NCBI GenBank assembly: GCA_964415355.1
Contig: CAYPYS010000001.1
Location: 215,399-279,398, forward strand
Length of the DNA: 64,000 nt
Direction: 5' to 3'
Origin: an uncultured Planctomycetia bacterium
Lineage (GTDB): Bacteria > Omnitrophota > Gorgyraeia > Gorgyraeales > Gorgyraeaceae
In this document: piece by piece, positions 8,598-37,300 of the stretch
Layout: the number at the start of each line of letters is the position of its first letter
Position numbering within the stretch: position 1 is the stretch's first letter
Translations under genes and position numbers: made by a program
The notes under the pieces: model-generated
What the model was told of the DNA's origin: nothing
Database searches by the model: none
The model's input: the letters and a program-made list of their open reading frames with translations, nothing else

Positions 8598-8599
8598 CG

Positions 8600-13685: not shown

Positions 13686-13698
13686 AACCTTTCCTTAT

Positions 13699-13721
13699 GT
13701 CATTCCCGCGCAAGCGGGAAC
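13699..13721. repeat. Hairpin GTCATTCCCGCG-CAAG-CGGGAAC (family B) in the 5' leader of the adaptor gene
   Basis: Read directly. Stem TCCCGC/GCGGGA with loop GCAA. Confidence 0.8.
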
Positions 13722-13723
13722 CC

Positions 13724-13760
13724 TAAGTATACATTTCAACAATGTTAAAATGTATACTTA
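13724..13760. repeat. PIE copy 6, GTATAC-stem variant (TAAGTATACATTTCAACAATGTTAAAATGTATACTTA)
   Basis: Read directly. The TolC-like gene stop (13758-13760) lies in its right end. Confidence 0.9.
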
Positions 13761-15593
13761 GGGCTTTGGGTGTGAGGCCAATCGGAAACTTCCGTCATCC
13801 AGAAACAAAGTATAGCCCGTAGCCCTGTTCAACTTTGCCAATGCCTGGTACAAGCTGCCGACCGCTTCTATATAAAATGACTTCTCGTCTGTAAGACTGA
13901 TGCGCGCCTGCATAAGCGCTGAATACGGTATTTCATTGAGCCCTGTTCGCGCTTTCGCGACCTTGAGTTCTTCTTCCCGATAATTCACCTTGTCCAGGTT
14001 TGCCCTTGCCTGTATCAAGCCTTTCTCGTATCCATAATAAGCATCTTTTATCTCTCTTATAATCGAGGCCTTTAGTTTCTTCAGCTCTTCCTTTGCCTTC
14101 TTAAATCCTATGCTGGCAGACTTTTTCTCAGAAAAACTCTGGAGGTTATCGAGGATCCCTATTTCAACAGACTGGCTCGCTGACTCTGTCCTGGTGCTTT
14201 CGCCGTGTTTCTCGCTCGTCTTGTCCTCTGTATAACCAGCGGATATTGTGTTGCCGCCAAGAGGCTTTGTCACTTTTAACCCAAGATACCAATCTTGATC
14301 CAATTCCAGCGTCTCTGTTTCAAACGCGCCGCCGGATTTTCCGTAAGAACCAGAGAGATCCACCTTAAACTGATCTTTGCTCTTCGCGATCTTCTGCCCA
14401 TAATCGTTAAAATCCACTATGTGCTTCTTTGCCTTGAAATCAGGCCTGTAACCAAACGCCAGATCCATGCACTGGTTCAATGTAACATCGACCTCTATCG
14501 CCTCAAGATAAGTAAGCTCTCCTAAGATCAAAACTTCACCCATATCGTCAGAGTCTTCGATGTTCATTGCCTGCGCGAGAGTCAATTTTGCCATGTCCAG
14601 CTCATTCTCGCTCGATGAGACCTGGTAGGCGATCTGCTTCATCTGTGAATGGACCTGCAAGAATTCTGTCTTTGTGCTCAAGCCCAGGTCAAACCTTTTC
14701 TTTGCCATCTCAAATATAGCCTCTGCGTCTTTTAATAGCTCACGCTGTTCCTTGAGGTTTATGCTCTTTACAATATATGAATAAAATGCTGTCTCTACGT
14801 CCATCCTCAAATCCTGCAATACCCTGTCATAATTTTCCTTTGAGGCCTTCATATTAGACATTGCCTGATCTACCGCATATTTAAGCCGCCAGCCATAATA
14901 CAGCGGGTGCTCGAACTTTATTTTGTACTCCTTGTCTGTGAAATCCTGGGTCGTGCCAGTAGTCTTACCTGTGGTCTCCATGTAATTCAAGCTCGCGGAC
15001 GGGTACAGCGCGCGGCGCGCCTCTCTGATCTTCAGCTCTGAGAGCTCTATTTCTTCCTTGGCTATGTCAGTGGATAAATTATTCTCAAGCGCGATATCTA
15101 TGGCCTGACCAATGTGCAGTTCCTCGGGCAGCGAGGCAGCAAACTCCGGCTCTGGTTCCCTGCTTTCAGTATAGTCCTCGCCAGGCTCTTTTTTAGGACT
15201 GGTCGCAAAGAATATCACAGGCACATCCAGCCATAGTTCTTCGGCGCCCAACTGGGCTGGAAAAGGCTTGAATCTATCTAATTTAAAAGTTGCCCTGAGA
15301 CAGATCTTGTCTAGATTTTTATTGCCTGAGGACTCAGAAACATAGATATCCCTTAGCTCACCCTTAGGAGAAAGAAGCATCTTAAGTTTCATTTCGCCCC
15401 TGGAATTAGACACAATATACCTCTCAGGCTTTCCTATGGCCTCATTTATATCCTTTGAAAGCCCAATTATATACTGTGTTATTGCTTCAATATTAGACGA
15501 AGATACTTGGTAGGCAAAAGATACAGTGCTGCATTGCGCTATAACTATAATAAATACAATAAGATACAATAATTTTCTATGCCTTGTAATCAT
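13758..15593 (-). CDS. Outer membrane efflux protein (TolC/OprM family) with an extra N-terminal ~130-aa domain
   Basis: 611 aa. It has a signal peptide (LLYLIVFIIVIAQCSTVSFA). Two TolC-like repeats with coiled-coil segments are present (...LYPSASLNYMETTGKT..., ...LTDEKSFYIEAVGSLYQALAKLNRATGY). It is the first gene of the tolC-MFP-RND-RND operon. Confidence 0.7.
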   Translation of the reverse strand: MITRHRKLLYLIVFIIVIAQCSTVSFAYQVSSSNIEAITQYIIGLSKDINEAIGKPERYIVSNSRGEMKLKMLLSPKGELRDIYVSESSGNKNLDKICLRATFKLDRFKPFPAQLGAEELWLDVPVIFFATSPKKEPGEDYTESREPEPEFAASLPEELHIGQAIDIALENNLSTDIAKEEIELSELKIREARRALYPSASLNYMETTGKTTGTTQDFTDKEYKIKFEHPLYYGWRLKYAVDQAMSNMKASKENYDRVLQDLRMDVETAFYSYIVKSINLKEQRELLKDAEAIFEMAKKRFDLGLSTKTEFLQVHSQMKQIAYQVSSSENELDMAKLTLAQAMNIEDSDDMGEVLILGELTYLEAIEVDVTLNQCMDLAFGYRPDFKAKKHIVDFNDYGQKIAKSKDQFKVDLSGSYGKSGGAFETETLELDQDWYLGLKVTKPLGGNTISAGYTEDKTSEKHGESTRTESASQSVEIGILDNLQSFSEKKSASIGFKKAKEELKKLKASIIREIKDAYYGYEKGLIQARANLDKVNYREEELKVAKARTGLNEIPYSALMQARISLTDEKSFYIEAVGSLYQALAKLNRATGYTLFLDDGSFRLASHPKP

Positions 15594-15897
15594 GTCTTAC
15601 CCTCGTGAAAAAGAAGTATACCATATGATTATATAATTGTCAATATTGGGGTTACAAAAATTTTGATACAGTTATGATACGGTTGGTTTGTTGGTGAGTC
15701 CCTTAGCATAATGAAGATATGCTAAGGCATGCTTAGGTCAGTCTTCGGAGGCCTCTTTATTTTTTGCGGACATGGTGCTTAACTTTACACTTTAACGTTG
15801 TTGAAATGTAAAGTTAAGCGAGCAAAAAATAAAAAGGAGAGAAAGCCGCTTCGCTGGGAGCGGCTGAGCGTCCTACGAAGACTGGCCTAAGCATGTC
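15594..15897. promoter_or_regulatory. Structured 304-bp intergenic region upstream of the efflux operon, with long inverted repeats bracketing a PIE copy
   Basis: Small hairpins: CTTAGCATAATGAAGATATGCTAAGG (~15700-15727), CTAAGGCATGCTTAGG (~15722-15738) and CCTAAGCATGTCTTAGG (~15885-15901). The left arm GGCATGCTTAGGTCAGTCTTCGGAGGCC (~15726-15753) is nearly the reverse complement of CGTCCTACGAAGACTGGCCTAAGCATG (~15869-15895). Inner inverted A/T runs are CTCTTTATTTTTTGCGG and GAGCAAAAAATAAAAAGGAG. A PIE sits at the centre. Confidence 0.6.
15780..15816. repeat. PIE copy 7 (TAACTTTACACTTTAACGTTGTTGAAATGTAAAGTTA; centre in flipped orientation)
   Basis: Read directly. The central 17-mer CTTTAACGTTGTTGAAA is the reverse complement of the copy-1 centre. 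Confidence 0.9.
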
Positions 15898-17139
15898 TTA
15901 GGCGTTTACGAAGACATGCCTTATTACAATACTGGCTGCACCAAGGGCAACTGAGTTCGTGCCGAGCTGGGCAGGTATTATCTTTACGATATTGGCTGGT
16001 TCCTCAAAAGCCCACTTCCTGACTGTCCTTCTCAAGGGCTCGAGAAAGAGGCTGCCAGACTTCTCTACGCCGCCTCCTATGATCACTATCTCTGGGTTAA
16101 ATAGGTTCACTAGATAGGCTACTCTAACGCCTAGATTAACAGCCGCGTCTTCCAAGAGGTCGATCGCAAGCGTGTCACCTGACTTTGCTGCCTCTATTAT
16201 ATTATCAATGCTCAACTTGTTCAAACTGCTGGCTGACTTGTCAGAAATAGTGGACTTTACACCCTTTTCTTCTATTAGCTTCCTGGCTTGGCTCACAAGA
16301 CCCAGGTCCAATCCCAACGGGAGCAAAAACGACAGATTCTTAGATAGTTTCAGGTAATCACCGTTTCTAGGATAATTTATGCGCAGCTCACCCGCGCTGC
16401 CGCTTGCTCCAGAGTATACGCCTCCTTTAATAATAATCCCACTCCCAACATCAGAATACATATAGATAACATCCTCTATATCTATCGGAAGCGCGTACAT
16501 CTTTTCTCCAAAAGCAGCGTAAGTAGCATCATTGCCAAGAAAACACGGCACGCCATACCTTTGTGAAATAAGGTCTTTTATTGTAATATAACTTGTGCGT
16601 ATGCCATGCTTGGTCGAGTCTCTTACAGTGCCCAGGGCATCGTCTATAACACCGCCTATTCCTATGCCGACTCCCTTGATCTTGTCTTTCTTAACATCCT
16701 TTTTGTTAATCAATGTCTCTATCAGATCCATGGACTTCTCTATAATCCTGTCCATGCTTTCTTTTTCCCTGTTAGTCTCGACCCTGGCTATTACCTTACC
16801 AGAAAGATCCGTGACAATGCCCGCCATGCTCGCGCCGCTTGCACCCATATGGCCGAGGTCAATGCCTATCGCATAACCGTTTCCGCTATTTAACTTTACC
16901 AGAGTCGGCTTCCTGCCGCCAGAAGAAGCCTCCATGCCGCTCTCTATAACAAGCCCATCCTTAATATGAGTATTTATGTAATTCGATACTGTCACTATAT
17001 TCAGGTCTGTTATCTTAGACACCTCTGCCCTGGTAATAGGCCCATTGCGACGGATCAGATCCAGTATGGAAAAATTTTTCTTCTCATGGTCCGACAATAA
17101 ATACGTTTCAAAAAGCCTGTTCTTATTAGCAGTTGGCAT
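15898..17139 (-). CDS. ROK-family transcriptional regulator (NagC/Mlc/XylR-like; N-terminal HTH plus sugar-kinase fold)
   Basis: 413 aa. HTH: ...FSILDLIRRNGPITRAEVSKITDLNIVTVSNYINTHIKDGLV. ROK/glucokinase motifs: ...GIGIGGVIDDALGTV..., ...GGVYSGASGSAGELRI... and a C-terminal ...IIGGGVEKSG. Confidence 0.75.
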   Translation of the reverse strand: MPTANKNRLFETYLLSDHEKKNFSILDLIRRNGPITRAEVSKITDLNIVTVSNYINTHIKDGLVIESGMEASSGGRKPTLVKLNSGNGYAIGIDLGHMGASGASMAGIVTDLSGKVIARVETNREKESMDRIIEKSMDLIETLINKKDVKKDKIKGVGIGIGGVIDDALGTVRDSTKHGIRTSYITIKDLISQRYGVPCFLGNDATYAAFGEKMYALPIDIEDVIYMYSDVGSGIIIKGGVYSGASGSAGELRINYPRNGDYLKLSKNLSFLLPLGLDLGLVSQARKLIEEKGVKSTISDKSASSLNKLSIDNIIEAAKSGDTLAIDLLEDAAVNLGVRVAYLVNLFNPEIVIIGGGVEKSGSLFLEPLRRTVRKWAFEEPANIVKIIPAQLGTNSVALGAASIVIRHVFVNA

Positions 17140-17168
17140 GGCTCCCTCCTTTTTTAATTGCGCCCTTC

Positions 17169-17205
17169 TAACTTTACACTTTAACGTTGTTGAAATGTAA
17201 AGTTA
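17169..17205. repeat. PIE copy 8 (TAACTTTACACTTTAACGTTGTTGAAATGTAAAGTTA)
   Basis: Read directly. The stop of ORF 17203.. (TAA) lies in its right end. Confidence 0.9.
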
Positions 17206-19974
17206 GAAGACACCGTGATAATAGATACGCAGTATATGCTGCGTATCCAGCGTTGGGTAAAAATCTCCAAAAGGACTCATAACTATACCTGGTATAGAAG
17301 TAGAATCGATGCTGCCCTCTCCAAACTGTATTACCAGCGCCCCATATTCGGTAACATTGTAATCCAGCTCCATAAATACATTGTGATGTTTCTCGTATTT
17401 CAAGTCTCCGCTTGTATTTAATCTATATAAGTTGTACGCCCTTGAAAAGGTATATTTCAGAAACCCTTTCAGCCTGGGATTAAATTTGTATTTAAAGGTC
17501 GTGCTAAATTGGTTCATGTTGTTATCCATGCTTTGCGCAAATTTAAAGTCGTTCTTGGTATAATCAAGATCTATGCCAAGATTTTCTAATGGCTTAAGCG
17601 AAACGCCGAGCCTGTAAATATTAAAACGCTCATATGGCGGAAGGTCAAAAAATCCCTGCGAATACAGAAAAGGTACTTCGCTTCTTATCTGCTGGCCATT
17701 TTCAGCCGCAGTGGAAAAACTGATATTATTCAAAAGCCACCTGGGATAATTATTTGTCGCGAATGTGGAATCATTTGTATTTTCGTATATGCCAAAAACG
17801 CTTATCCAGTCCCATTCCGACGGAGAATATTCTACGCCTAAAGAATATGTGGATACAGACGGGTCTTTCCCGTCCTCGATGGCGGCATTTGACTTGAATT
17901 CCCCTGTATCTGCGTCGTAGATGATAGGATCTATGCCTCCTTTGGTCTTTGGGAGGTCGTGATATATAAATAAAAACTTGGAAGTCCACTCAGGGTTGAT
18001 CTCAAGGGTATTTTCCTCTCTAAAAACGCCCTCGACATATTTATGATCAGAATCCCTCACGTATCTATAGTCGATTAAATTCTTCATCCTGCCATCCAGC
18101 GCATCTTCTTTCTCTAATCTGAAATTAACTGCATCCCTGCCCACATCCACTCCATCGCCTATTCTAAATGGCTCAATATCTTCATATCTTAAAGGATCAG
18201 AACCCCACCTGCTATATTCTATCGGTTCTTTAAAATGAATGTGCCTGCCCCAGTATTGATCGTTCCTTGTCTGCCTATAACTTGCCAGCCCCGGATCAAA
18301 ACCTTTATCCATATGCGTAAAGGCTAATCTCGCGTCGCCCCACGTCGTTCCTCTCTTAACTGCGAGATGGGCCGCGGTTCCGTTTCTCTCTGTCTCGTAA
18401 GTGCTGTCTGATCTATCATCTTCGCTCTTACTCACTGCGATCTCACCGACTATATTAGTGGTTGGATTTAAATCATAACTGGCATCTACGCCAAATACAT
18501 TATTATACGAATCAGCCTTATCGTCTTCGTAACCTATCCTGAACGTGTCTATAAAGCCTAACGTCAACCTATCATTTATAGGTGTCTTTATCCTTATCGC
18601 GCCAGGCACTGCGTTGACACTGTCATATTCCTGCCACAATCCTTTAGGCGTCGCAAAGGTCGTCTGCAGCTCGCTGCCCCCAGCAAACTCAGACGCAAAG
18701 GAAAAGCCTCTCAGGGCTGTAAGCCTTTTTAGTTCCTCGCTCTCTCTTGTAAAAGTTGACAGGTCGCTTGACCATTGTCCTCGAGTAAAAGAAGCTGCGC
18801 TTGAATTTAAATTTCCGGTCTTCCATTCATCAAGCCACGGACTCGGCTCCCAGTAGATGTGATGGTTCGAAAGCCCCAATGGGTCGTCTGAAGAAAGAGC
18901 CTGGTCTTCCAAGCCAAACAGAAACGCCCTGGCTTTATAACTATCGGTATTATAATCAAACCATAGCTCCCTCATTGGCTGAAAACTTGTATCTATATCC
19001 AGCTCGGGTATGCTAAAACTCTCTCCCCATGTATCATTGACCGAAGTAGAAACCACCCTTCCGTCAACAACCTTTAATTCAGGTATATCTATATCATCTC
19101 CATCACTCAATGTTGGTATGGTTTCGTTTATTGTGCTTCTGTTGCCTGACCAGTACTTTAACTCTATCTCGGTCGTGTCTCCAGCGCTGCCGGTTATTGT
19201 AGTCTTTTCTGTTTTTCCTACGAAACTCCAAGGGTCCACTGTGATGTCGGAATGGAAATTCAAACCTTCCTCACTTTTATTTGTATCAAACACGACCTTA
19301 AATCTGTCATACACTCTTTTATCGAATGTATTTGCCTTTGGAAATTGGTGGTCTATTACTCTGAAGTTGCGCTCGACATGGTCTGCATTTGTATCCTTCC
19401 AGATCAAATCATCGCCTGTAACGCCAAAGGCCATCTTGTATTCACCCTTTATCTCGCCGGGCGCGATATTGTCATTGAGCGCGTCGGCTATGGCTTTTAT
19501 TTTATCTTCAGAATAACCTGGCGGATACTGGTATCGCGGCTCTGTCTGTGGTTTTATCTGTGGCTGGTGGGAATATTCATATTCTTCTACAGGCTCATAT
19601 CTTTCCTCTATATGCACCGGTCTGTCAAATTCTGGATTATCGCTATACTCTCCTCTATATATAGGTTGCGGCAACGCCTCTGACTCCCTGCGCAGCTCAT
19701 CGCTTCTCTGGTAAGTATCCAGCATCCCGCGCGCGCGCAGCCTGAGCTCCGCGTTCACAAGATCCAGATACGTCTGCGCGTCAGCGTTCCGCGAGTCGAG
19801 CTCGATCGCGCGCTCGAGGATCACCTTGGCCTCGTGCAGCTTGCCGGCGCGATAGTAGTCCACGCCCCTGCTGGACAAGCCGAAGCTCACGGCAATATCC
19901 TGCTCTTGCGCAAAGCAGGGCGCTGCCGCCACTAATACCAACACTGTCACTATCGCCGCAAATTTCCTCATCAT
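17203..19974 (-). CDS. Large (~923 aa) secreted protein, putative outer-membrane beta-barrel / oligosaccharide channel; N-terminal TPR-like helix pair
   Basis: The likely start is MMRKFAAIVTVLVLVAAAPCFA (ATG 19972-19974). The track start (MLKCKLTRV) lies inside the PIE. It is beta-rich and Asp/Gly/Tyr-rich throughout. It ends in ...YYHGVF (aromatic C-terminal residue, typical of OMPs). It is adjacent to the glycoside-hydrolase genes. Confidence 0.5.
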   Translation of the reverse strand: MMRKFAAIVTVLVLVAAAPCFAQEQDIAVSFGLSSRGVDYYRAGKLHEAKVILERAIELDSRNADAQTYLDLVNAELRLRARGMLDTYQRSDELRRESEALPQPIYRGEYSDNPEFDRPVHIEERYEPVEEYEYSHQPQIKPQTEPRYQYPPGYSEDKIKAIADALNDNIAPGEIKGEYKMAFGVTGDDLIWKDTNADHVERNFRVIDHQFPKANTFDKRVYDRFKVVFDTNKSEEGLNFHSDITVDPWSFVGKTEKTTITGSAGDTTEIELKYWSGNRSTINETIPTLSDGDDIDIPELKVVDGRVVSTSVNDTWGESFSIPELDIDTSFQPMRELWFDYNTDSYKARAFLFGLEDQALSSDDPLGLSNHHIYWEPSPWLDEWKTGNLNSSAASFTRGQWSSDLSTFTRESEELKRLTALRGFSFASEFAGGSELQTTFATPKGLWQEYDSVNAVPGAIRIKTPINDRLTLGFIDTFRIGYEDDKADSYNNVFGVDASYDLNPTTNIVGEIAVSKSEDDRSDSTYETERNGTAAHLAVKRGTTWGDARLAFTHMDKGFDPGLASYRQTRNDQYWGRHIHFKEPIEYSRWGSDPLRYEDIEPFRIGDGVDVGRDAVNFRLEKEDALDGRMKNLIDYRYVRDSDHKYVEGVFREENTLEINPEWTSKFLFIYHDLPKTKGGIDPIIYDADTGEFKSNAAIEDGKDPSVSTYSLGVEYSPSEWDWISVFGIYENTNDSTFATNNYPRWLLNNISFSTAAENGQQIRSEVPFLYSQGFFDLPPYERFNIYRLGVSLKPLENLGIDLDYTKNDFKFAQSMDNNMNQFSTTFKYKFNPRLKGFLKYTFSRAYNLYRLNTSGDLKYEKHHNVFMELDYNVTEYGALVIQFGEGSIDSTSIPGIVMSPFGDFYPTLDTQHILRIYYHGVF

Positions 19975-19982
19975 CACCCTTG

Positions 19983-20019
19983 TAAGTTTACATTTCAACA
20001 TTGTTGAAATGTAAACTTA
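19983..20019. repeat. PIE copy 9 (TAAGTTTACATTTCAACATTGTTGAAATGTAAACTTA; G..C paired stem variant)
   Basis: Read directly. It is followed by a GC-rich segment CGTCGCCCGCCGCGCTACCTGCGCAGCCGCGCC (20021-20053). Confidence 0.9.
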
Positions 20020-20060
20020 GCGTCGCCCGCCGCGCTACCTGCGCAGCCGCGCCAAACCTT

Positions 20061-21269
20061 TTATCTCCATAATTCCTTAAGCTTAAAGAACGCCTTCGTG
20101 GGCCTGCGCTCGTCAAACCCTCTCTTACCGCCCCGTTTCACCGCGCACACGCCCCACCACTCTTCATTTATATTAAGATTCTGAGGCGCTTTTATGTCAA
20201 AATAATACGCGCCATTGGACCAGCTAGCAGAAGTATTATGCACGCCCCACATGGCATCGTCTTCTTCATTGAACTTCCACCACTCATCTGTCCATTCGAA
20301 CACAAAACCTCCGAGACAATTTCCAGCCCCGCCCCCGCCATACACATTCTTCTCTATCTCGTTCCACTCCGCCTCTATAAACTCTGCCTGGATCCCCTCG
20401 TCTTCTTCCCTTAAAAATGCGTTATATCTATCGCATCCAAATTCTGTTATGACCACCGGACGACCAAATTTCATTGCCGCCTCTCGGAAAAAATTACCAA
20501 ACGATTTACCTCTATATACAGAGCAACCGAGGATGTCAATGTCAGGAGTCACCTCGCCCGCCACATCTATATCGTTCAGCTCCGCGTTCGCCAGCACCAC
20601 AGGATGCAGGGGATCGATCTTGTGGATCTCAGCCGCCACTTCATTTACAAATGAATAATAGATGCGCGCCCGCGCCTGCCGCTTCAGATATGGATCTTCC
20701 AGGGCCTCTATCTCGTCCGTGGTCCAAAGATTCATTGTTTGCGGGCCATAGGAAAAAGAAAAATTGTTTTCATTCCCGAGGATCCACGCCAAGATACCGC
20801 TCTCATTCTTGTACGTCTCCACCATCGCGAGCGCATCCTTTTTAACCTTTTCCCGGAAGGCTGCATCCGCATAATTCGGGTCATCCCAAAAACCAAGCCA
20901 ATGCCCCATTACGACGCGTATGCCAAATTTATCATGTAGGGTTCTCAGGACCATTTTTGTGTTCTCGACATTCTTGCTAGGCTGATACACCCTGATAGTG
21001 TTCACGCCAATGGATTTCATCATCCTCGCATCGTGAATATACGGCTTTGTCGTATCGCTCCAGAAATCATACAAGTGATTCTCTCCTATCGGCACAGGAT
21101 TATACACCATACCTTTAATAACGTAGGGCCTGTTGCCAACCATCAACTGAAAGCGCTTTCCTTCCAAAGTTTTTACATATACCTTCTCTGGCCCAGTCCT
21201 ACTAAAGATAAAAAATCCCAAAACTGATACTAGAATCAGAAAACTAGCTATAATAATTATTTTTTTCAT
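20061..21269 (-). CDS. Glycoside hydrolase, clan GH-A TIM-barrel (GH5/GH2-like catalytic motifs), membrane-anchored or secreted
   Basis: The likely start is MKKIIIIASFLILVSVLGFFIFS (ATG 21267-21269). The track start at 21278 is a GTG. It carries an acid/base-like ILGNENNF and a nucleophile-like VVITEFGCD. These are paralogous to the motifs in 22171..24486. Confidence 0.6.
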   Translation of the reverse strand: MKKIIIIASFLILVSVLGFFIFSRTGPEKVYVKTLEGKRFQLMVGNRPYVIKGMVYNPVPIGENHLYDFWSDTTKPYIHDARMMKSIGVNTIRVYQPSKNVENTKMVLRTLHDKFGIRVVMGHWLGFWDDPNYADAAFREKVKKDALAMVETYKNESGILAWILGNENNFSFSYGPQTMNLWTTDEIEALEDPYLKRQARARIYYSFVNEVAAEIHKIDPLHPVVLANAELNDIDVAGEVTPDIDILGCSVYRGKSFGNFFREAAMKFGRPVVITEFGCDRYNAFLREEDEGIQAEFIEAEWNEIEKNVYGGGGAGNCLGGFVFEWTDEWWKFNEEDDAMWGVHNTSASWSNGAYYFDIKAPQNLNINEEWWGVCAVKRGGKRGFDERRPTKAFFKLKELWR

Positions 21270-21282
21270 CTCTCTCACCCCT

Positions 21283-21319
21283 TAACTTTACACTTCAACA
21301 TTGTTGAAATGTAAAGTTA
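21283..21319. repeat. PIE copy 10 (TAACTTTACACTTCAACATTGTTGAAATGTAAAGTTA), flanked by CCCC/GGG extending the palindrome
   Basis: Read directly. A second hairpin GGTCTGGG...TGCCGACAGGCA...CCCAGACC follows immediately (21321-21356). Confidence 0.9.
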
Positions 21320-21367
21320 AGGGTCTGGGTCTCTGCCGACAGGCAAAGGCCCAGACCAAAAAATATA

Positions 21368-22087
21368 TTACTCGTACCTTATATCATCCAGATAAAAGGT
21401 AACGCCGTTCGGATTAACATCCAAGTTCGTGGACCAAGCAAATCCTCCGCTTATATAGCTCAGGTCTTTGCCTCTTAAATCGATTTCATACTGCTTCCAT
21501 TCCTGCGTGAGCATCACAGGCCCAATGCCTGCAATATCAGAATCAGGGTAGAGTCCGGTCAGGCCTCCGACCTTAAACTCCTCTATCCTCTCGCCCCCAT
21601 TCTCGCCCCTTGCCCAGAATACAAGCTTCGTGGCGCCTGTGAGGTCATAGCCGCCTTCTCTATCTCCCCAATTGTTGGCTGGATTCTGCCAATACATGCC
21701 GACCCACCTTGCGCCCTGACTTGCCAGGTTGCTATAGACTATCTTGATACAAGTCGTGCCGCCATGCGGATCTTCAAAAGAAGACCGCTCAACAGCGATG
21801 TCAGAATGATCCCCCATATATCCTGATGGCACATAATGATTGTCAGGAGACCTGCCATCCGTATAAATAGGGAACGGTTTAAATACGCTCACAACCTCTT
21901 GAACATCTTCATAAACATCCTCATAAGCGTAATAATCATCTTCGTATTCATAAGGATTATCCACTGCTGACTCATAATCCTCTGTTGCAGTATCTGCATA
22001 CTCTCTTTCACTGGAACCACAGCTCGCCAAGCTAAAGAGCATAAGCCCTGCGATCACCAGCAATGTTAAAGTTAAACTTTTTTTCAT
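21368..22087 (-). CDS. Lipoprotein with acidic Tyr/Asp/Glu-rich linker and C-terminal beta domain (putative carbohydrate-binding)
   Basis: The likely start is MKKSLTLTLLVIAGLMLFSLASCGSS (lipobox LASC). A perfect Shine-Dalgarno GGAGGAG lies 5-11 nt upstream of ATG 22085-22087. The track start at 22120 is further upstream. Confidence 0.55.
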   Translation of the reverse strand: MKKSLTLTLLVIAGLMLFSLASCGSSEREYADTATEDYESAVDNPYEYEDDYYAYEDVYEDVQEVVSVFKPFPIYTDGRSPDNHYVPSGYMGDHSDIAVERSSFEDPHGGTTCIKIVYSNLASQGARWVGMYWQNPANNWGDREGGYDLTGATKLVFWARGENGGERIEEFKVGGLTGLYPDSDIAGIGPVMLTQEWKQYEIDLRGKDLSYISGGFAWSTNLDVNPNGVTFYLDDIRYE

Positions 22088-22170
22088 TTTCTCCTCCTTG
22101 TGCATTTTTAAATTTTGCATTTTTAAATGTTAATTTTGCAATGTTAACCTCTTTACTGCACCTCCTTCCT

Positions 22171-24486
22171 CTACTCCGTCCATAATTCTTGATACATAAA
22201 ATATGATTTTTTCAACTGCCTCAAGAACGGACTGTGACTGCCGTCCCCTTGTCCAGCTATGCCAAGCCACTCTTCATAATTCCATCCGTCTGGAAAAGGA
22301 CCTGCCCAGTTTTTGGTTGCATCGTGCAGTAAAGGCTCGTACGCCTTCCACCACTCATCCAACCATTCAAAGTGAATACCGCCTATAGAATTGCCTATGC
22401 CCCTATGCCCTCCTGAATTATACACTATATCCTTCCAGCTCTCCTTTAGATATTCAGCCTGTCTCTCTTCTGCAACCTCTTTTGACTTACCTGACATGTA
22501 ACTCGGGCACCCATATTCAGTAATAATAACGGGCTTATCGCACGCCTTTTTCGCGTTGTTCCAAAAACTCCTCCCGAAACCATAGCTTCCTCTATATGCA
22601 TTAGCCCCATAGATATCGATGTCCGGAGCAAGCTCGCTAAACTTGTCCAGAAACAATAAATCGCCGCTACAGATCGCAACAGGATGATCCCTGTCAATAG
22701 ACTTTATCATCCTTGCGACTTCATTTGCAAATTTATAATACGCCTCGGGTTTTTTCTTCGCATTGTTCGCGACACCATAATTATTTTCATTTCCAAGCAT
22801 CCAGAACAACACATACGGCTCGTCTTTAAATTGCTCTACCATTGATCTCACGCTCTCTATCATGTTCTTTTTATGTTCCGGGTTTTCATAATCCGTGCCT
22901 TCATACCAATCCGCGCCAGACCCGACAGTGTATGCGCCCAACAGATCTCCCATTATGACCATCATGCCATACCTGTTATACAAGTCTTCCAGGAGTTCCT
23001 TATCCGAAGCATGGTGATATAGCCGCATCGCATTACAGCCCATATCTGCCATCAATTGAAAATCCCCCACTGCTTCCTCGTCCGCGTCCTGCACATTATT
23101 AAAATTCTTATCCACCCAGCTGTCGTAAGGCCCGTCGCTCCTTCCGTTGCCATTGCTATCTGCCTGCATCCAATCCTCTAAAGTGCCTTCGTCCGGGCTC
23201 TGTCCGATTTTACCTGGAGAATAAGCAATGCCTTTTACGATAAATGGTTTTCCTTCCAGCCTTAAGTGCCAGTGCCCGTTATTGTATTGCACGAGATCCA
23301 CCCTGCCGTCGCCAAGCTGCCTCACGACCCTGCCTGTCCTGACCGGTCTATTCTTAAACAAAGCCTTCTTTATATTATCGAAAAAACCCAGCTTCACAAG
23401 GCGGCCGGGGTCTACAAAAAATATATCATTGGAAAGGTCATTGTCAAACCCATTTTCAACAAATATCTCTGCGTCGCGCAACTCCATCTTTAACTCCGGG
23501 TGTTTTTCCAATAAAAAGTCGATCTTGTCTATAGCTACCTGCGCAATATACCAGGGCGTATGAAAATATGTCCAGCCAACTGATTTCGGGAAGTGCACAG
23601 CTATTGCGTAATATGCCTTTATTGCGTGCTCTGTGAGACCTGAACGTTCAAGCGCCATAGCTGCGTAAAAAAGCCTGACTCCCATTGGCTCTGCTGCCTG
23701 CGTCCATTTGTAAAAATTGGACTCAAGATCATCAGTATTCACAAAATCCCAATGATTACCTTCTAACCTGCCTTCCTTGCTCAGCTCTCTATAGCGCGGG
23801 TCCCACACCACCCCGGATGTATTCGGATAAATACCTTCACCTGCGGCCAGCGCCAAGCCTTCCGGGTCCTTTGCCACATACCTATATTTATCAGTGCCTC
23901 TTCCTTTAAAATATCCATATTTATTGTAGTTAACGGGAAACTCTTTGCCTGCATCATAAAGCGTGATCTTTGTCGCAGGCCTGATTATTGCAGGCGGCTT
24001 TTCTGCTTCTTTCTCGTCGCCAGCCTCGGCCTCTGTCTCTATCTTCTCGAGACTCTCCTGGCTCTTTTCCTTTACACTCCAGAACCAGCCGCGCGGATCC
24101 CAGTTCTGCGCGTATCCATACTCTTCTATCGCTGCCACAAACGCCTCTTTCGCCTCCTCTGTCTTCCCCTGCGAGAGAAAGAGCTCGCCTTGAATAAAAT
24201 AACTCGTCCCCACTGCGTTGAGCACTGCGTATTTCTCTATAGCGCCTGTCATCGGCAAGCCAGTCAGGCTCGCCTGCTCTTCTCTTGCCTCACCCGCGTA
24301 GAGCTCGATACATCTACTCGTGTAGTGAAAGGTTTTTTCAAGATCCTTTGCGCCCCAGGCCTCCCACGCGCGCATAAGCAGCTCTTTTGCAGAAAGCGGT
24401 GCAGTCTCTACAACTTCTTCAGCAGCCTGCACTGGAACCGCCATCACCATCACCAAAAATATCACAACTAAATTTATTTTTCTCAT
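22171..24486 (-). CDS. Secreted glycoside hydrolase, clan GH-A catalytic domain with N-terminal TPR-like region
   Basis: The likely start is MRKINLVVIFLVMVMAVPVQA (ATG 24484-24486, abutting the PIE). The track start is TTG inside the PIE. It has GNENNYG and VIITEYGCPS motifs. The N-terminal ~330 aa is helical and TPR-like. Confidence 0.6.
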   Translation of the reverse strand: MRKINLVVIFLVMVMAVPVQAAEEVVETAPLSAKELLMRAWEAWGAKDLEKTFHYTSRCIELYAGEAREEQASLTGLPMTGAIEKYAVLNAVGTSYFIQGELFLSQGKTEEAKEAFVAAIEEYGYAQNWDPRGWFWSVKEKSQESLEKIETEAEAGDEKEAEKPPAIIRPATKITLYDAGKEFPVNYNKYGYFKGRGTDKYRYVAKDPEGLALAAGEGIYPNTSGVVWDPRYRELSKEGRLEGNHWDFVNTDDLESNFYKWTQAAEPMGVRLFYAAMALERSGLTEHAIKAYYAIAVHFPKSVGWTYFHTPWYIAQVAIDKIDFLLEKHPELKMELRDAEIFVENGFDNDLSNDIFFVDPGRLVKLGFFDNIKKALFKNRPVRTGRVVRQLGDGRVDLVQYNNGHWHLRLEGKPFIVKGIAYSPGKIGQSPDEGTLEDWMQADSNGNGRSDGPYDSWVDKNFNNVQDADEEAVGDFQLMADMGCNAMRLYHHASDKELLEDLYNRYGMMVIMGDLLGAYTVGSGADWYEGTDYENPEHKKNMIESVRSMVEQFKDEPYVLFWMLGNENNYGVANNAKKKPEAYYKFANEVARMIKSIDRDHPVAICSGDLLFLDKFSELAPDIDIYGANAYRGSYGFGRSFWNNAKKACDKPVIITEYGCPSYMSGKSKEVAEERQAEYLKESWKDIVYNSGGHRGIGNSIGGIHFEWLDEWWKAYEPLLHDATKNWAGPFPDGWNYEEWLGIAGQGDGSHSPFLRQLKKSYFMYQELWTE

Positions 24487-24522
24487 AACTTTACATTTCA
24501 ACAACGTTAAAGTGTAAACTTA
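24486..24522. repeat. PIE copy 11 (TAACTTTACATTTCAACAACGTTAAAGTGTAAACTTA)
   Basis: Read directly. It directly abuts the GH start codon. The ABC permease start (25375) is on the other side, so this is not a stop-overlapping copy. Confidence 0.9.
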
Positions 24523-24526
24523 GCAC

Positions 24527-25375
24527 CTATCCTACAATCGCCCTTGCAGTTATACCTTTAATAATATGCTTCTGCATAAAAAGATATACCAGGATTATCG
24601 GCAACACTGTTATTGTTATGCCTGCCATAAGCAGTGGATACTCTGTTATATGCGTGCCCTGGAATATCATAAGACCTCTCTGTAGCGGCATTAAAGACTT
24701 GGAAGAAAAAATCAATGTCGCTAATATATATTCATTCCACACATTCAGGGAATTAAATATCACTATGACTGCGATCGCTGGCCGCGCGAGAGGCAGCGCC
24801 ACGTTCCACCATATGCCAAGCTTTGAGCATCCGTCGATGCGCGCCGCATCTTCAAGCGCCGCAGGCATCCTATCGAAAAACGTCTTTAAAATATATATAC
24901 TAAAGGAAAGCCCTACATTTATCATGCACAGGATATAACCTATGCGCGTATTCACCAGGTGCAGTTTTGTCATCAACACATACAAAGGCACAAAACTCCC
25001 TGGAAGCGGTATCATCATTGCCCCAAGAAACATGTAAAACAAAACATTTTTCCCGGGAAACTGCAGCCGCGAAAACGCGAACGCGGCCAGCGAAGAAATA
25101 ATCACTATGCCGAAAACAACTGTCACCGTATAGATAACGCTGTTTAAAAAATACATGCCAAAGCCGCCCTTGGTCCATGCATAATAAAAATTACTCCACA
25201 CAGGATTGCGCGGAATTATACTCATGTCTGAAAATATCGACTGCTGAGTCTTGAGCGCAGACCCTACCATCCACAAAAGCGGAAATACGCAGGTCACTGC
25301 CACGCTGATAAGAAATATGTGTATTAGCAGCGTCTTAACGCCTCTCTGCATTTTATATCCCATTGCCTCAGTCAT
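24527..25375 (-). CDS. Carbohydrate ABC transporter permease (CUT1 family, MalG/UgpE-like)
   Basis: 282 aa with 6 TM segments and the EAA loop ...LEDAARIDGCSKLGIWWNVALPLARPAIAV.... Confidence 0.8.
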   Translation of the reverse strand: MTEAMGYKMQRGVKTLLIHIFLISVAVTCVFPLLWMVGSALKTQQSIFSDMSIIPRNPVWSNFYYAWTKGGFGMYFLNSVIYTVTVVFGIVIISSLAAFAFSRLQFPGKNVLFYMFLGAMMIPLPGSFVPLYVLMTKLHLVNTRIGYILCMINVGLSFSIYILKTFFDRMPAALEDAARIDGCSKLGIWWNVALPLARPAIAVIVIFNSLNVWNEYILATLIFSSKSLMPLQRGLMIFQGTHITEYPLLMAGITITVLPIILVYLFMQKHIIKGITARAIVG

Positions 25376-25384
25376 AAAGTTTTT

Positions 25385-25408
25385 GTCATTCCCGCGAAAG
25401 CGGGAATC
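25385..25408. repeat. Hairpin GTCATTCCCGCG-AAA-GCGGGAATCC (family B; 8-bp stem, GAAA loop) in the 5' leader of the permease gene
   Basis: Read directly. Confidence 0.8.
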
Positions 25409-25409
25409 C

Positions 25410-25446
25410 TAACTTTACATTTCAACAACGTTAAAGTGTAAACTTA
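25410..25446. repeat. PIE copy 12 (TAACTTTACATTTCAACAACGTTAAAGTGTAAACTTA; identical to copy 11)
   Basis: Read directly. The stop of permease 25444..26331 lies in its right end. Confidence 0.9.
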
Positions 25447-26331
25447 GGCCTTGTTCATATGCTTCGATATACGGATCTGGATAAATGACACTGCCAAAAG
25501 TATCGCGCCGAAGATAATGCCCTGGCTGCACGCATATCCAAATCTCGACGAACCCACCATCGAAGACAAAATCCTGGTCACAGGGACCTCTGTATGGTAC
25601 CCTGGCCCTCCTCCTGTCATTGAAAGTATCAATACAAAAACCTGCATCGTGCCGAGCACCGTAAGGATCGACACCAGGACAAACACAGGCACCATAAGAG
25701 GCGCAGTAACCTTTTTAAATATCTGCCATGAGTTTGCTCCGTCCACGCGCGCGGCCTCGTACAGCTGCCTCGGTATAGTCTGAAGTCCTGCCAAAAATAT
25801 AATAAAACCCCAGCCAAATCCTTTCCAGCAATGGATCATTGCCACGCACGTCAGCGCGGTCTTTGGATCCGAAAGCCAGTCCCGCACCAAATGCGACAAT
25901 CCCATCGCATGCAGCCAATGATTCAAAAGTCCGAAATTCCCGTCGTAAATCCAGCGCCACACAAGCCCGACGACCACCGCAGAAAGAACAGGTGGCAGAT
26001 AAAATATCACTCTGTAAACATTCCCGCCTTTTATGTCTCTGTCGCACGCCCACGCCAGCGTCAGCGCCAAGGCGTTCTGAAAAGTAAGCGCGATCAGGGT
26101 AATATACCCTGCCTGGCCCATGGCCTGCCACCAGATTTTATCGTAAAAGAAAAGCTCTTTAAAATTCCTGAAGCCTATGAAATTTTTCGCAAAATCAAAA
26201 CCCATTATCCCGTCCCACTCACAAAGAGAAAGCATGAAGACCTTGTAGAAAGGATAAATATAAAATACTGAGAACATCAATACTGCCGGCAACACAAAAA
26301 AGTAATTTTCAACTGTAGATTTTATCCGCAT
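25444..26331 (-). CDS. Carbohydrate ABC transporter permease (CUT1 family, MalF/UgpA-like)
   Basis: 295 aa with an EAA loop ...LYEAARVDGANSWQIFKKVTAPLMVPV.... Confidence 0.8.
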   Translation of the reverse strand: MRIKSTVENYFFVLPAVLMFSVFYIYPFYKVFMLSLCEWDGIMGFDFAKNFIGFRNFKELFFYDKIWWQAMGQAGYITLIALTFQNALALTLAWACDRDIKGGNVYRVIFYLPPVLSAVVVGLVWRWIYDGNFGLLNHWLHAMGLSHLVRDWLSDPKTALTCVAMIHCWKGFGWGFIIFLAGLQTIPRQLYEAARVDGANSWQIFKKVTAPLMVPVFVLVSILTVLGTMQVFVLILSMTGGGPGYHTEVPVTRILSSMVGSSRFGYACSQGIIFGAILLAVSFIQIRISKHMNKA

Positions 26332-26344
26332 AATTATATCCGCC

Positions 26345-26381
26345 TAAGTTTACACTTTAACGTTGTTGAAATGTAAACTTA
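26345..26381. repeat. PIE copy 13 (TAAGTTTACACTTTAACGTTGTTGAAATGTAAACTTA)
   Basis: Read directly. A family-C element follows immediately. Confidence 0.9.
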
Positions 26382-26383
26382 CG

Positions 26384-26420
26384 TGTCATTGCAAGGCACG
26401 AAGCGCCAAAGCAATCTCAC
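26384..26420. repeat. Family-C element GTCATTGCAAGGCACGAAGCGCCAAAGCAATCTCAC (only intergenic copy)
   Basis: Read directly. It shares the GTCATTGC.AG...GAAGCAATCTC layout with the in-ORF copies at 34697, 49777 and 62722. Confidence 0.7.
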
Positions 26421-27751
26421 TACGTTTTCAGAAGCTCGCGTTCTTTTATGGCCTGAACCTCGGCTCCCAGTTCTTCCGGTGTCTTCTCGCCGATGATAAT
26501 AGACTGTATACCCTTGTCAAACCTCTCTATGACCACTGGAAATTCTGCCACGCCCCACACGTTTGGATGCGTAACAACATCCATATCGTCCGCAAACTGC
26601 GCCAGAATCTCTGGTATATCGCTTAAACTGTATCCATTGGAAGGTAAATTCCTCGTTTCTCTCGCCAGGAAAACCTGCTGCTCTGTATCGGTAAGCCATT
26701 CTAAAAACTCAACTGCCTTCTCGATATGAGACGAATTATTGTTGACTATAAAACTCGAACCAGCCCCGCCCCAGATCTTCATTGGAAATCTATCGCCTGC
26801 GGCCGGCGGTAACATTACCCCATAATTTAGATCAGGATTCATACCCTCGTACACATTCACGCACCACGATCCATTAAAAGCAAAGGCTGCGCGACCATTC
26901 GCGAAAAGCTGCTCCGCAGTCTTATTTACCATCGTAACAATCCCGCTCGCCAGAAGTTCCTCGTCGCGCATCTGGCGGAACAGATCAAACACCTTTATCC
27001 AATCAGGATCTGTATAAGGCACCCTCCCGCGGATCGTATCTAAAACCTTATTCTCACCCATAATATTAAAAGCATAATTAGACGCGATGCAATCAATTAT
27101 CCATTTCTCGCCCCAGCCGCTCACAAGCCCTTGGATACCATTTGCTTTTAAAAGCCTGTTAACTTCTAAAAAATCATCCCATGTCGCAGGAGGATTAGAA
27201 GCATCCCAACCAACCTGCGCTAATAAATCTTTATTGTAGAGCATCTGGATATTTGTAACATCGAGAGGCACACCGTAAATCCCGGGCACCACGCTAAAGG
27301 CATTGCCTTTGCCAAACTCATTCACAGCGAGCGCTTTTTCAAAAAACCTTTTCCTCCACTCGCCATCATTCGCATTTATCGCTTCTGTAAGATTATAGAT
27401 ATGGCCGGCTTTGATAAAACTCGCAAAATCTCTTTTTTCTCCGAGGATTCCAAATATATCGGGCAGGGTATTTGTCTGTGCAGCTGCTCTTACCTTTTGA
27501 GTGTAGGCATCAGAAGGCGCATAAAGTTCGAAATTTATCTTTACGCCTGTTTTGATTTTATATTTCTCAGCCAGCTCGAGTAAGACCTCTTCTTTGTCGC
27601 TCATCCAATGCCATACTGTAATGGTTTCGACGCCTTGGCCTTGTGAAGCGCAGCTAGCTAAAAAAATACTTAAGAAAACTACAAAGGAAGAGTATATAAA
27701 AAAAAGATAAATCTTCCTGTAGAGACAATTCATCTTTCCCCCGATTTCCAT
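26420..27751 (-). CDS. ABC transporter extracellular solute-binding protein (CUT1 family), lipoprotein
   Basis: 443 aa. Signal with lipobox ...SIFLASCASQG. Typical SBP_bac_1 features include ...TVWHWMSDKEEV... and ...GSWCVNVYEG.... Confidence 0.75.
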   Translation of the reverse strand: MEIGGKMNCLYRKIYLFFIYSSFVVFLSIFLASCASQGQGVETITVWHWMSDKEEVLLELAEKYKIKTGVKINFELYAPSDAYTQKVRAAAQTNTLPDIFGILGEKRDFASFIKAGHIYNLTEAINANDGEWRKRFFEKALAVNEFGKGNAFSVVPGIYGVPLDVTNIQMLYNKDLLAQVGWDASNPPATWDDFLEVNRLLKANGIQGLVSGWGEKWIIDCIASNYAFNIMGENKVLDTIRGRVPYTDPDWIKVFDLFRQMRDEELLASGIVTMVNKTAEQLFANGRAAFAFNGSWCVNVYEGMNPDLNYGVMLPPAAGDRFPMKIWGGAGSSFIVNNNSSHIEKAVEFLEWLTDTEQQVFLARETRNLPSNGYSLSDIPEILAQFADDMDVVTHPNVWGVAEFPVVIERFDKGIQSIIIGEKTPEELGAEVQAIKERELLKT

Positions 27752-28112: not shown

Positions 28113-28212
28113 CTCCTTTTTGAAAACGCTTTCTTGCTATGACTATACCACAACCCTTAAGATTTTAAAAGCTTTTTTTTATTTTTTTTCACCTTAACCT
28201 CACATTTTGTCG

Positions 28213-28264
28213 TTTCCCTCTCTTCGTAGGGGAGACTTAAGTCTCCCCTACGAAGAGAGGGAAA
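28213..28264. repeat. 52-bp perfect palindrome TTTCCCTCTCTTCGTAGGGGAGAC-TTAA-GTCTCCCCTACGAAGAGAGGGAAA (family D)
   Basis: Read directly. It is preceded by a T-run (TTTTTTTTATTTTTTTT at 28172-28190) and lies just 3' of the giant ORF. Confidence 0.85.
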
Positions 28265-28266
28265 GC

Positions 28267-28305
28267 TTAAGCATACACTTCAACATTGTTGAAGTGTATA
28301 CTTAA
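28267..28305. repeat. PIE copy 14, GCATAC/GTATAC variant (TTAAGCATACACTTCAACATTGTTGAAGTGTATACTTAA)
   Basis: Read directly. The giant-ORF stop TAA (28302-28304) lies in its right end. Confidence 0.9.
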
Positions 28306-34300: not shown

Positions 34301-37300
34301 ACTGGCCTCCCATGATGTAAAACTTACCTATATCTTTTCTCTCAGGATAGTCAGGGAACACTTTCATCATCATGTCAATGATCCCCTGGAATTTTTGTCT
34401 ATATTTATGTGGCTCGTCAGGATGACTCAGCGCAGTCACAACAGCCACATTTATGCGAAACATCAATAGTATAACTATTAATGCCGCTAATAGGCCCTTT
34501 TTCAAAACACTGCCGCCCTGTTTATATAATGTGCCATCGCCGTCAAGAGTAACTAATTTTGGTCCTCTGGCAACAATTTTTCTCAATAGGAATTTCACTG
34601 TTGCCGCAAGAGGAGGCGAATGGAACATGCGGGCCAGGTATTTTAATATGCCGGATTTGTAGATAAGGTATGCGATTAGTAATAAAACAACGACTGTCAT
34701 TGCGAGAAGCAACAACGGCGAAGCAATCTCTAACTTTACATTCCAACGTTGTTGAAGTGTGAAGTTAAAGAGTAAAAACATAGGCATGGACATGGAGCTG
34801 CCTGGCCCATGAGTGTCTCTTTTTGTTCTCTCAGAAACCTTAAGCCTTTCGATAATATTTTTGCGTACCGAGTCAATGTCAAAACCACTCCCCGGGCCTT
34901 CTCCTATGAATCTTTCCACAAAATCGCCGCCCATCTCTTCAGTAGAAGGAGATTTCTTACCAAAACCCCCAGCCAACTCTGGCCCTATATGCGCCAATGC
35001 CTTCTTTTGATATGATGCAGCTTCTATCTTATCTGCATCTGGTACCAGACCTTTCATTGTCACATTATCTCTAGAATAGAAATAGAAATTGAATCCACCA
35101 GCCCATGGAGCGAGATAATATAAAACAATAATCTCCACATCCTTAAGACCCTCTGATTCACTTGACAAGTCTGTTAATACACTAAGTATCATGTCTGTAA
35201 CTACATTATGAGTGGGATGACCGTCTTCTCTATGCGGCATTATTACTACAAACTGCCCTTCTTCTCTAATAGCATCTTGATAGGCTTTTATAAATTCCTG
35301 AAACCTAATCTTCAATTTTCCAGCTGCTTCTATAAGTTCCTCACGGGATGGCATTACATCTGGGCTAGGTATATCAGGAATAATATTAAGATTCTCGACT
35401 ATTACAGCGCCTTCTCTCTCGCCAGATAAAACCACGCCGGCATTTCGCGCCTCCTCCCCTCTTATCTTTATTTTAAGGCTCTTTTCATCTACATGAGGCC
35501 TTGCCCTGTCTACATCATTCAAGATTATCCCTGCTTCGCCAGCGCTGAATACCATATTAATCATTATCACCTCATTCTCTGCGCCTGCTATAGCCATGCC
35601 ACCAGCTGCAATTTCCATGTCATCAGGGTGAGGCGAAGTAAAGATAAGCGGTATTCTTCTGGTTATTCTTATAGGGATAAATCCTTCGGGGGCCTTCTCT
35701 CCTTCAAATACAATAGCATGAGGCTGTTGTGAATCTGCGAGCACGCGTTCCCCATTTTTTATCCTGCCCACAACAAATGAATGAGCATATTCATAATCCA
35801 CTGCATCTCTTTCAGGAATCAATCCGTATCTTTTACCTAGCGTAGCAGCATGCTTCATGACCCAGTGAGTAATTTTTACATATTCGGTTCGGCGCGTCTG
35901 GCTTTTATGCTTACCGACAGCCTTTTTAACTCTATCTGCGATTTTTTTGCCAAAAGTGAAAACTAGGTTTACATATGAAGGATACTCAAAAGATTCATAA
36001 TAAAAGGTATATACATCCGGATAAACCTCGGCTCTATACTCTGTGACAAGCTCTCTGTTTTCTGGCGAATATGGCATCATAATAAAATCTGGCCTATAGT
36101 CGCCTAAAATATCTCCCAAGGCCTTTGCACTGTTTAATCTATACACCCTTATTTCGTTTCCATTAAGCCTTAATGCCTCAACAACATTACCGGCAAATAC
36201 CATATAATCATTTTCTACGACTTCAAACACTGCTACTTTCTTTCGTGCAGGCAATGGACATTTATTTATAGCCTCTGGTAAGTCAGGTTTATCGCTAAGA
36301 ATCACATTGCCGGATAGAGGAGACCAGTTTGACTCAGTATACCGAAGACAATTTAGATTTGCATTAATGTCATCTCTAAGACTCCTGACTTTCAAGACAA
36401 GAGATTCATCCTCTATGTTCCTCGCCATTGCCCCTAGAGTATCAAGTAGCGTTTTCTCTAAAGCAGGGAGCTCAGCAGGAATCCTCCCTGCATGGATAAA
36501 CGCAAAGAGTCTCTGAACACTTGAGGAGGGATAGGTTTTATTACGTTTCCGCAGGTCTTCTTCTAGAGACTGCCAGATTTGTTCGCAGTCCTGTTCCTTA
36601 AATACTCCTATAGCTTTTCCAGTCTCAAAAGTCAGCTGAACCGCTTCAAGGGCTTTGGGGTATAATGGACTCTCGGGATCAAGTACCATCCCTACCCAAA
36701 GTTCTTCAATCCTACGCAACAAACCATCTTCTTTAAAAAGATTGGCAAGCGGCACGACATTGACTGCCATAGTAACCATGGCCTTCACCCACTCATGCCA
36801 AATTGAATCAGCATTCTTGCCTGCATCCTCTGGAATGATTGCAGGATAATCTCTTTCTTCAAGGATTTCTTTAACGCGCCTTCGCTGAGCAATGTTATTA
36901 ATGCCCAGTCCTGCTGCTGCCAGAATAACCTTACCCTTCTTGCCTGGTATATAGACCATTGTCGGAACACCGTCTATTTCTCGCTCTTCTCTCCTGCCAG
37001 ATTGTCCTACAATTCCCCGAATCACGCATCCAGCAATGGATGTTTTGGTCTCATCAGACAATGTCTTTAACTGCTTTGAAGCACAGATTCTTTTAAATAA
37101 AGTATCAATAAACTCCTTATAATAAATCCCATTGCTCAAAAGAATAAACTTTGGTACCAATAGTTGAACGTCACCTTCGATCGCAAAATATCCCTGCCCT
37201 GCCATCACTTCTAAGAGCTCTACTAGTTCGTCCATGAAGCTCGTTAGTATCTTATCTGTATGCGGCGCAACAAAGACAACATCAGGGAGATGTCTGCTGC

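Follow-up and report, generated by a model that had tools for sequence, protein, structure and literature searches.

The Neisseria Transformation Sequence (NTS, consensus CGTCATTCCCGCGMAVGCGGGAATCYRG) extends the dRS3 repeat ATTCCC-N8-GGGAAT into an oriented motif, and a degenerate version of the motif, the "Ssn-related motif" or SRM (HGTCWYN(0-2)YYVSBRHN(0-5)WNVSBRGN(0-2)RNCYNB), has been proposed for other phyla (PMC11893778). The Ssn proteins that recognise it are small single-domain GIY-YIG proteins (cd10448), which bind the NTS hairpin in ssDNA only and cleave just upstream (5') of it, in the GTCATT orientation only; the reverse strand, dsDNA and RNA are non-substrates (PMC11893778). The 3 nt that precede the palindrome on its 5' side are the main determinant of cleavage, and the C immediately 3' of the palindrome is that of binding; the loop can be lengthened or dispensed with (PMC11893778). 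In other bacteria, the NTS element flanks ssn genes as inverted copies and is also scattered through the genome, and the dRS3 repeat of Neisseria has been described as a phage recombinase target, for neisserial filamentous prophages (summarised in PMC11893778).

The window, by which we mean the whole 64,000-nt stretch of DNA analysed here, contains a 12-mer, GTCATTCCCGCG, that occurs three times, always on the plus strand (at 8504, 13699 and 25385), and in none of 100 dinucleotide-preserving shuffles (expected count 0). A full-text literature search with this 12-mer led to the NTS as described by Chenal et al. (Nat Commun 2025; PMC11893778). The three hairpins that begin with it (Table 1) are probably members of the known NTS/dRS3/SRM kind, newly found in Omnitrophota, and not a conserved RNA leader. 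Taken as a whole, we consider it quite probable that these are solo NTS/dRS3-type repeats inserted in the junctions between genes, where they would serve as Ssn sites and would have been dispersed by an NTS-ssn-NTS element. The copies are discrete insertions of ~24 nt in once-tight intercistronic junctions, often next to an unrelated palindrome, PIE, that is found at most gene ends. The function of the hairpins would be exerted in DNA, where Ssn would recognise and cleave them on ssDNA arising in replication, in repair or as incoming DNA, and their effect on mRNA, if any, would be a side effect. Under this explanation a known DNA-level element would take the place of a speculative riboregulator, the NTS/Ssn-motif family would come to include Candidatus Omnitrophota, a phylum that is uncultured and has giant genes, and such hairpins should not be labelled in annotation as leaders, terminators or small ORFs.

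Table 1. Positions in the window of the three hairpins, the neighbouring PIEs and the genes downstream
Feature	Position	Strand	Remarks
NTS-type hairpin copy 1	8504-8550	+	GTCATTCCCGCG-[AAGCTTGTCCCCGTGAAAACGGGGA]-GCGGGAATCC; parsed GTC-ATTCCCGC-[25-nt loop]-GCGGGAAT-CC
Inner hairpin nested in copy 1 loop	8523-8540	+	TCCCCGT-GAAA-ACGGGGA
Two tandem PIEs near copy 1	8559-8599, 8600-8636		second holds stop of gene 8634-12437
AcrB-family transporter gene downstream of copy 1	5283-8492	-	ATG 11 nt past hairpin GAC
NTS-type hairpin copy 2	13699-13723	+	GTCATTCCCGCG-CAA-GCGGGAACCC; parsed GTC-A-TTCCCGC-GCAA-GCGGGAA-CCC
PIE abutting copy 2	13721-13763		holds stop codon of gene 13758-15593
RND membrane-fusion protein (adaptor) gene downstream of copy 2	12504-13685	-	ATG 12 nt past hairpin GAC
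NTS/dRS3-type hairpin copy 3	25385-25409	+	GTCATTCCCGCG-AAA-GCGGGAATCC; parsed GTC-ATTCCCGC-GAAA-GCGGGAAT-CC
PIE abutting copy 3	25408-25448		two C's common to NTS 3' flank; holds stop (25444-25446) of gene 25444-26331
ABC permease gene downstream of copy 3	24527-25375	-	ATG 9 nt past hairpin GAC

Hairpin sequence and fold compared with NTS and dRS3

The first-pass annotation had described three hairpin copies with short stems, and this description holds, given the three occurrences of the 12-mer against 0 in the shuffles and stems of 7-8 bp. The starts that it gave for the second and third copies (13699 and 25385) are right, but the first site, which it began at 8505, is off by one and starts at 8504. 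As is asked of NTS/SRM elements, the window copies are semi-palindromes that form a hairpin in ssDNA, with a stem of 8 bp at 25385 (folding energy -9.0 kcal/mol), of 7 bp at 13699 (-8.5 kcal/mol), and with an outer stem of 8 bp and a nested inner stem of 7 bp at 8504 (-15.4 kcal/mol), for a z of about -4 versus shuffles. The inner hairpin of the first copy was seen at this site alone among all the loci fetched.

With NTS/SRM, these elements have in common a 25-nt core that forms the hairpin, GTCATTCCCGCG-MAV-GCGGGAATC-Y, oriented unpaired flanks (GTC on the 5' side, C on the 3' side), an extragenic position in the window and a variable loop. The copy at 25385 agrees with the NTS consensus at 25/28 positions, all three mismatches being the outermost positions, and the copy at 13699 at 24/28. 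Unlike the consensus, the window copies have T for C at the 5' end and TA for RG at the 3' end, and with 3-4 mismatches to the NTS 28-mer they are missed at the published search threshold of one mismatch at most (PMC11893778). The degenerate SRM pattern is fitted by the copy at 13699, which makes one match in the window versus 0.13 expected; the copy at 25385 departs from it at the last base alone, and that at 8504 has exact arms around a 25-nt loop longer than the pattern allows. Compared with dRS3, the copy at 25385 is an exact ATTCCC-GCGAAAGC-GGGAAT and is likewise intergenic, the copy at 13699 has one mismatch, as it ends in GGGAAC, and the copy at 8504 has N33 between its arms.

Nine copies were compared across the lineage, all of them intergenic as NTS/SRM elements should be. 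The unpaired GTC and the 3' C are each conserved in 9/9, and the loop sequence is free to change (GAAA, GCAA, AAAA, GTAA and two long loops of 25-26 nt with nested hairpins); one copy, in a related MAG, shows a compensatory stem change (ATTCCCGT/ACGGGAAT). Fixed flanks combined with free loops form the pattern that is foreseen by the published enzyme determinants, and not the one foreseen by an RNA tetraloop.

In other respects the window copies differ from the described NTS/SRM elements. Their host belongs to Candidatus Omnitrophota, a phylum absent from the text of Chenal et al. 2025 (PMC11893778), their copy number is low (four in ~74 kb of the window species, and four in 332 kb of a distant MAG), and two copies of the lineage, one of them in the window, carry a second hairpin in the loop. 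A further difference concerns the ssn gene itself: we found no Ssn-like GIY-YIG ORF by regular expression, phmmer or hmmsearch with a 4-sequence Ssn profile in ~410 kb of non-redundant lineage DNA, made up of the window, a 10 kb extension and 332 kb of the distant PIE-bearing MAG, and for this reason we infer, rather than observe, the action of Ssn in this organism.

The same result, together with the invariance of the copies in 16 strain contigs, would also suit an inert relic of a lost element, and the recombinase role ascribed to the neisserial dRS3 raises the possibility of an attachment or target site for a site-specific recombinase or an IS110/Piv-type transposase. We give either reading very little credence. 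No integrase, transposase or prophage gene is found by the window copies, whose neighbours are RND efflux and ABC transport genes; unlike dRS3, the copies are single, among housekeeping transport genes, rather than set in NIME-like arrays with RS elements between, and neither a filamentous prophage nor a Piv-type recombinase is near them. As to a relic, the GTC and 3' C found in 9/9 copies and the compensated stem change point to continued constraint rather than decay.

Junction layout in the window and in relatives

All credible genes of the window are on the minus strand, and include those for YchF, T2SS pseudopilins, GspF, two AcrB-family pumps, an RND adaptor, an OEP and a ROK regulator, as well as glycosidases, an ABC sugar transporter, PilZ and a giant ORF extending past the window end. 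The AcrB-family transporter encoded at 8634-12437 has 1,267 aa, with a DeoR-type HTH domain at its C-terminus (residues ~1208-1253), an unusual fusion for an RND pump that is kept in the sister species (1,276 aa). At 3/3 junctions the hairpin was found where the earlier reading had placed it, between a PIE and the start codon of the downstream gene, the order on the coding strand being a stop codon inside the ~40-nt PIE, then GGATTCCCGC-UUUC/UUGC-GCGGGAAUGAC, then 9-12 nt, then the ATG.

Syntenic Omnitrophota loci were retrieved by way of permease and RND adaptor homologues, and the homologues of window proteins at 82-92% identity are labelled Candidatus Omnitrophota. The permease/permease junction of the window species measures 68 nt and holds a PIE and the hairpin. 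In a sister species (L205, 92% aa), a PIE variant is followed directly by AAAACTTT-ATG, and the alignment contains one clean 24-nt gap, GATTCCCGCTTTCGCGGGAATGAC, which is exactly the hairpin, the PIE being kept. The spacer at this junction shrinks to 7 nt in L203/L204 (90%), 14 nt in L194 (89%) and 4 nt in L196 (85%), and L198 and L195 have unrelated short spacers; neither PIE nor hairpin was found at the permease junction of any of these. The OEP/adaptor junction of the sister species (83% aa) holds a PIE variant and a hairpin with intact stem, whose loop on the coding strand is TTTT versus TTGC in the window (AAAA on the forward NTS strand), and in relatives at 69% the two genes either overlap at ATGA or are separated by a hairpin unrelated to this one. 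At the AcrB/AcrB junction, two PIEs and the hairpin occur in the window species only: three relatives have neither NTS nor PIE, the sister species showing an unrelated palindrome and the others 13 nt or an ATGA overlap. The MAG CAYULJ01, whose GspF is 44% aa identical to that of the window, is too distant for a comparison of orthologous junctions.

The hairpin is thus missing from the orthologous junctions of 4-6 related Omnitrophota, where a leader should be conserved, and the hairpins are therefore insertions specific to this lineage, in junctions that were once tight and probably under translational coupling. The 24-nt presence/absence at the permease junction means that the hairpin is a discrete unit, gained or lost without the neighbouring PIE at this site. 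A single NTS hairpin as a precise 24-nt indel, independent of its neighbours and located in tightly coupled operons, is new with respect to the text of the Ssn paper (PMC11893778), and bears on how the repeats spread and on whether Ssn is a nuclease only or a part of mobilisation.

The first-pass annotation had favoured a conserved leader RNA with GNRA-type loops, that is, a hairpin in the polycistronic mRNA that would control how the downstream cistron is processed, stabilised or translated. The three window copies, located 9-12 nt upstream of the ATG and all in the same orientation to the gene, would agree with such a role, as would the 7/8 independent lineage copies in that orientation and the sister OEP/adaptor copy, which keeps its stem while the loop has changed. 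We nevertheless find a leader very improbable. With every gene on the minus strand, the mRNA has UUUC/UUGC loops, which are not of the GNRA type, the GAAA/GCAA loops belonging to the antisense (plus) strand, and the Shine-Dalgarno region is outside the hairpin stem. Rfam (E-value mode, positions 1-29000) gave nothing at the hairpins and only spurious miRNA matches on other palindromes, and a promoter/terminator scan of 8000-27000 gave neither a site at the hairpins nor a terminator-like tail. In relatives the orthologous junctions lack the hairpin, several of them being ATGA overlaps or spacers of 4-14 nt, a fourth copy from the same species (L190) has the opposite orientation, and the orientation in viral contigs is even among the matches listed, as detailed below. 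The conserved unpaired GTC and 3' C also fit the determinants of a DNA enzyme rather than an RNA fold (PMC11893778).

Seen from the side of Ssn, the bias in orientation means that the non-cleavable strand is on the coding strand in 7/8 independent lineage copies. This suggestive bias could reflect avoidance of the cleavable strand on the strand that is exposed as ssDNA (the non-template strand, also the lagging-strand template for co-oriented genes), or it could reflect an RNA effect. Two other candidates were dropped: a mini-ORF or translational coupling through the ATG inside GGAATGAC, for which the frames disagree among the three copies, and a -35-like ATGACA in the 3' arm, which is too near the ATG to serve the downstream gene and has no support from the scan.

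How the repeats were dispersed is a separate matter, for which REP/REPIN elements and their RAYT enzymes offer a comparison. Like these, NTS-type repeats are short, oriented, extragenic hairpins that act in ssDNA, occur as solo copies in operon spacers, and are tied to a small single-domain enzyme gene between inverted copies. The head is GTCATT, not the GTAG of REP/REPIN, and the enzyme is a GIY-YIG nuclease, unlike RAYT, an IS200/IS605-like HUH Y1 transposase; Ssn is not known to transpose. The hairpin might be viewed as a mobile unit of ~24 nt, with a GIY-YIG Ssn of this lineage as a RAYT-type mobiliser, in addition to an ssDNA restriction enzyme, that would copy or paste single hairpins into ssDNA at operon junctions and at the apical loops of other hairpins. 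Such a mobiliser would fit the data because of the clean 24-nt difference in the sister species and of the hairpins nested in NTS and PIE loops, and it would be the first evidence of a GIY-YIG nuclease driving a REPIN-like repeat expansion, although we regard it as unlikely. No difference separates the 16 strain contigs of this population at any of the three sites, and no ongoing mobility is therefore visible.

PIE and the motif in viral contigs

PIE is a near-perfect palindrome of ~40 nt with the core TACAYTTYAACRWYGTTRAARTGTA, present in 16 copies in positions 1-28300 of the window (843-28298). It occupies 15/19 intergenic spacers (~80%), and its outer TAA/TTA usually gives or overlaps the upstream stop codon. 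The same core recurs in CAYULJ01, the distant MAG, as well as in two other MAGs with an Omnitrophota label, and a PIE scan of the viral contigs returned no match. PIE is missing from the syntenic Omnitrophota loci at 69-90% aa, yet occurs in the far-distant CAYULJ01 (GspF 44%), a distribution that speaks for a MITE/REP-like element which spreads horizontally and has expanded recently.

The first-pass annotation had also proposed, as an alternative to a leader, a second small repeat family that co-inserts with PIE. The first half of this proposal is borne out, the hairpins being a family of repeats distinct from PIE and located in intergenic spacers; the second half is not, and we consider it highly improbable that the hairpin is a part of PIE or always travels with it. 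Adjacency is real: PIE is within 20 nt of 7/8 independent lineage copies, three of these copies share the same geometry, in which GGGAAYCY is directly followed by the TAAS of PIE, and a scan of 332 kb, nearly all of it from CAYULJ01, gave four hairpin copies that are all within 20 nt of a PIE. The association that had been put forward for checking thus exists, but at a frequency close to what the ~80% occupancy of spacers by PIE predicts, and 13/16 PIEs in positions 1-28300 are without hairpin. Copy 1 is separated from its tandem PIEs by 8 nt (8551-8558, TATCTCG plus the preceding A), and the four copies of the 332 kb scan include both hairpin-PIE and PIE-hairpin orders. The sister species has a PIE without the hairpin at the same junction, with the clean 24-nt gap described above. 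The fourth copy of the window species (L190, 17503-17555), in the extension 10 kb to the left of the window, has no PIE; its forward strand is the coding strand, its loop contains a nested hairpin, and it is 13 nt before an ATG. A metagenome scan for the hairpin followed by PIE gave one chance match (L189), and a loose scan for 'GTCWY + stem' was too noisy for use.

Viral contigs, in which PIE gave no match, are rich in the hairpin motif. At least 120 stretches carry it, in sequence backgrounds that are very different from one another, with the consensus GTCATTCCCGCG-(CAG/AAG/AAA)-GCGGGAATCCAG among the matches listed. Among the same matches, 133/183 copies are intergenic by crude ORF calls, and the orientation relative to co-directional flanking genes is the same in 30 cases and opposite in 30, which implies a motif without a general sense-strand requirement. 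At four viral-contig loci among the matches listed (L048, L112, L009 and L045), the motif flanks an ORF of ~100 aa with a GIY-YIG domain (PF01541, E ~1e-15). In 3/4 of these loci a forward copy precedes the GIY motif by 52-61 nt, in 3/4 a reverse copy follows it by ~300 nt, and 2/4 have both copies. These viral loci independently reproduce the published NTS-ssn-NTS arrangement.

Other palindromes and the giant ORF

The giant minus-strand ORF (28302-63917) covers 11,871 aa in the window, which is part of the JGI contig Ga0118727_1000073 (173 kb), and the gene call on that contig has 28,837 aa; in relatives, giant genes of 15,237 and 21,048 aa are called at this position, which is upstream of those for PilZ and the ABC sugar transporter. 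At 34696-34775, inside this ORF, a GTCATTGCGAG...GAAGCAATCTC hairpin and a degenerate PIE are translated in frame (...LFNFTLQQRWNVKLEIASPLLLLAMT...). The degenerate PIE has TGG where the canonical PIE would give an in-frame TGA, a difference that looks like an adaptation of the insertion to being translated, as in the Rickettsia palindromic elements.

The GTCATTGCGAG-N-GAAGCAATCTC hairpins form a second family headed by GTCATT, with an NTS-like head and tail, that is outside the published SRM pattern. Its members are found at 26385-26416, 49779-49848, 62724-62790, 39684-39701, 55398-55415 and 60339-60395, and at position 3068 of L149 and position 4350 of L174; one intergenic copy adjoins a PIE. 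The giant ORF contains two inverted pairs and several short palindromes of this family, all in frame. The in-frame copies encode motifs such as VIARAQSEAISTGLHYFARND and a recurring ARNDxFxQL, and may be either insertions or a coding repeat of the giant protein.

A third palindrome family, REP-like, has a GTAG head (…TGTAGGGGAG-CTTAAG-CTCCCCTACA…), often with TTATCCACA/TGTGGATAA at its flanks. It is common to the window (2935-2974 and 28204-28274) and the distant MAG, with further sites in L141, L159, L160, L170 and L188, and gives rise to spurious Rfam miRNA matches (mir-3914, mir-3688).

The apical loops of these palindromes look like preferred places of insertion or replacement. Small GC-rich hairpins occur within the apices of other hairpins at 8523-8540 of the window, as well as at 17514-17529 of L190, 9159-9243 of L199 and 40-75 of L205. 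Two NTS loops hold such an inner hairpin, and two PIEs of the sister species have TCCGCC-CGAG-GGCGGA or ACCGCTTCGTGGCACAGGC in place of their centre.
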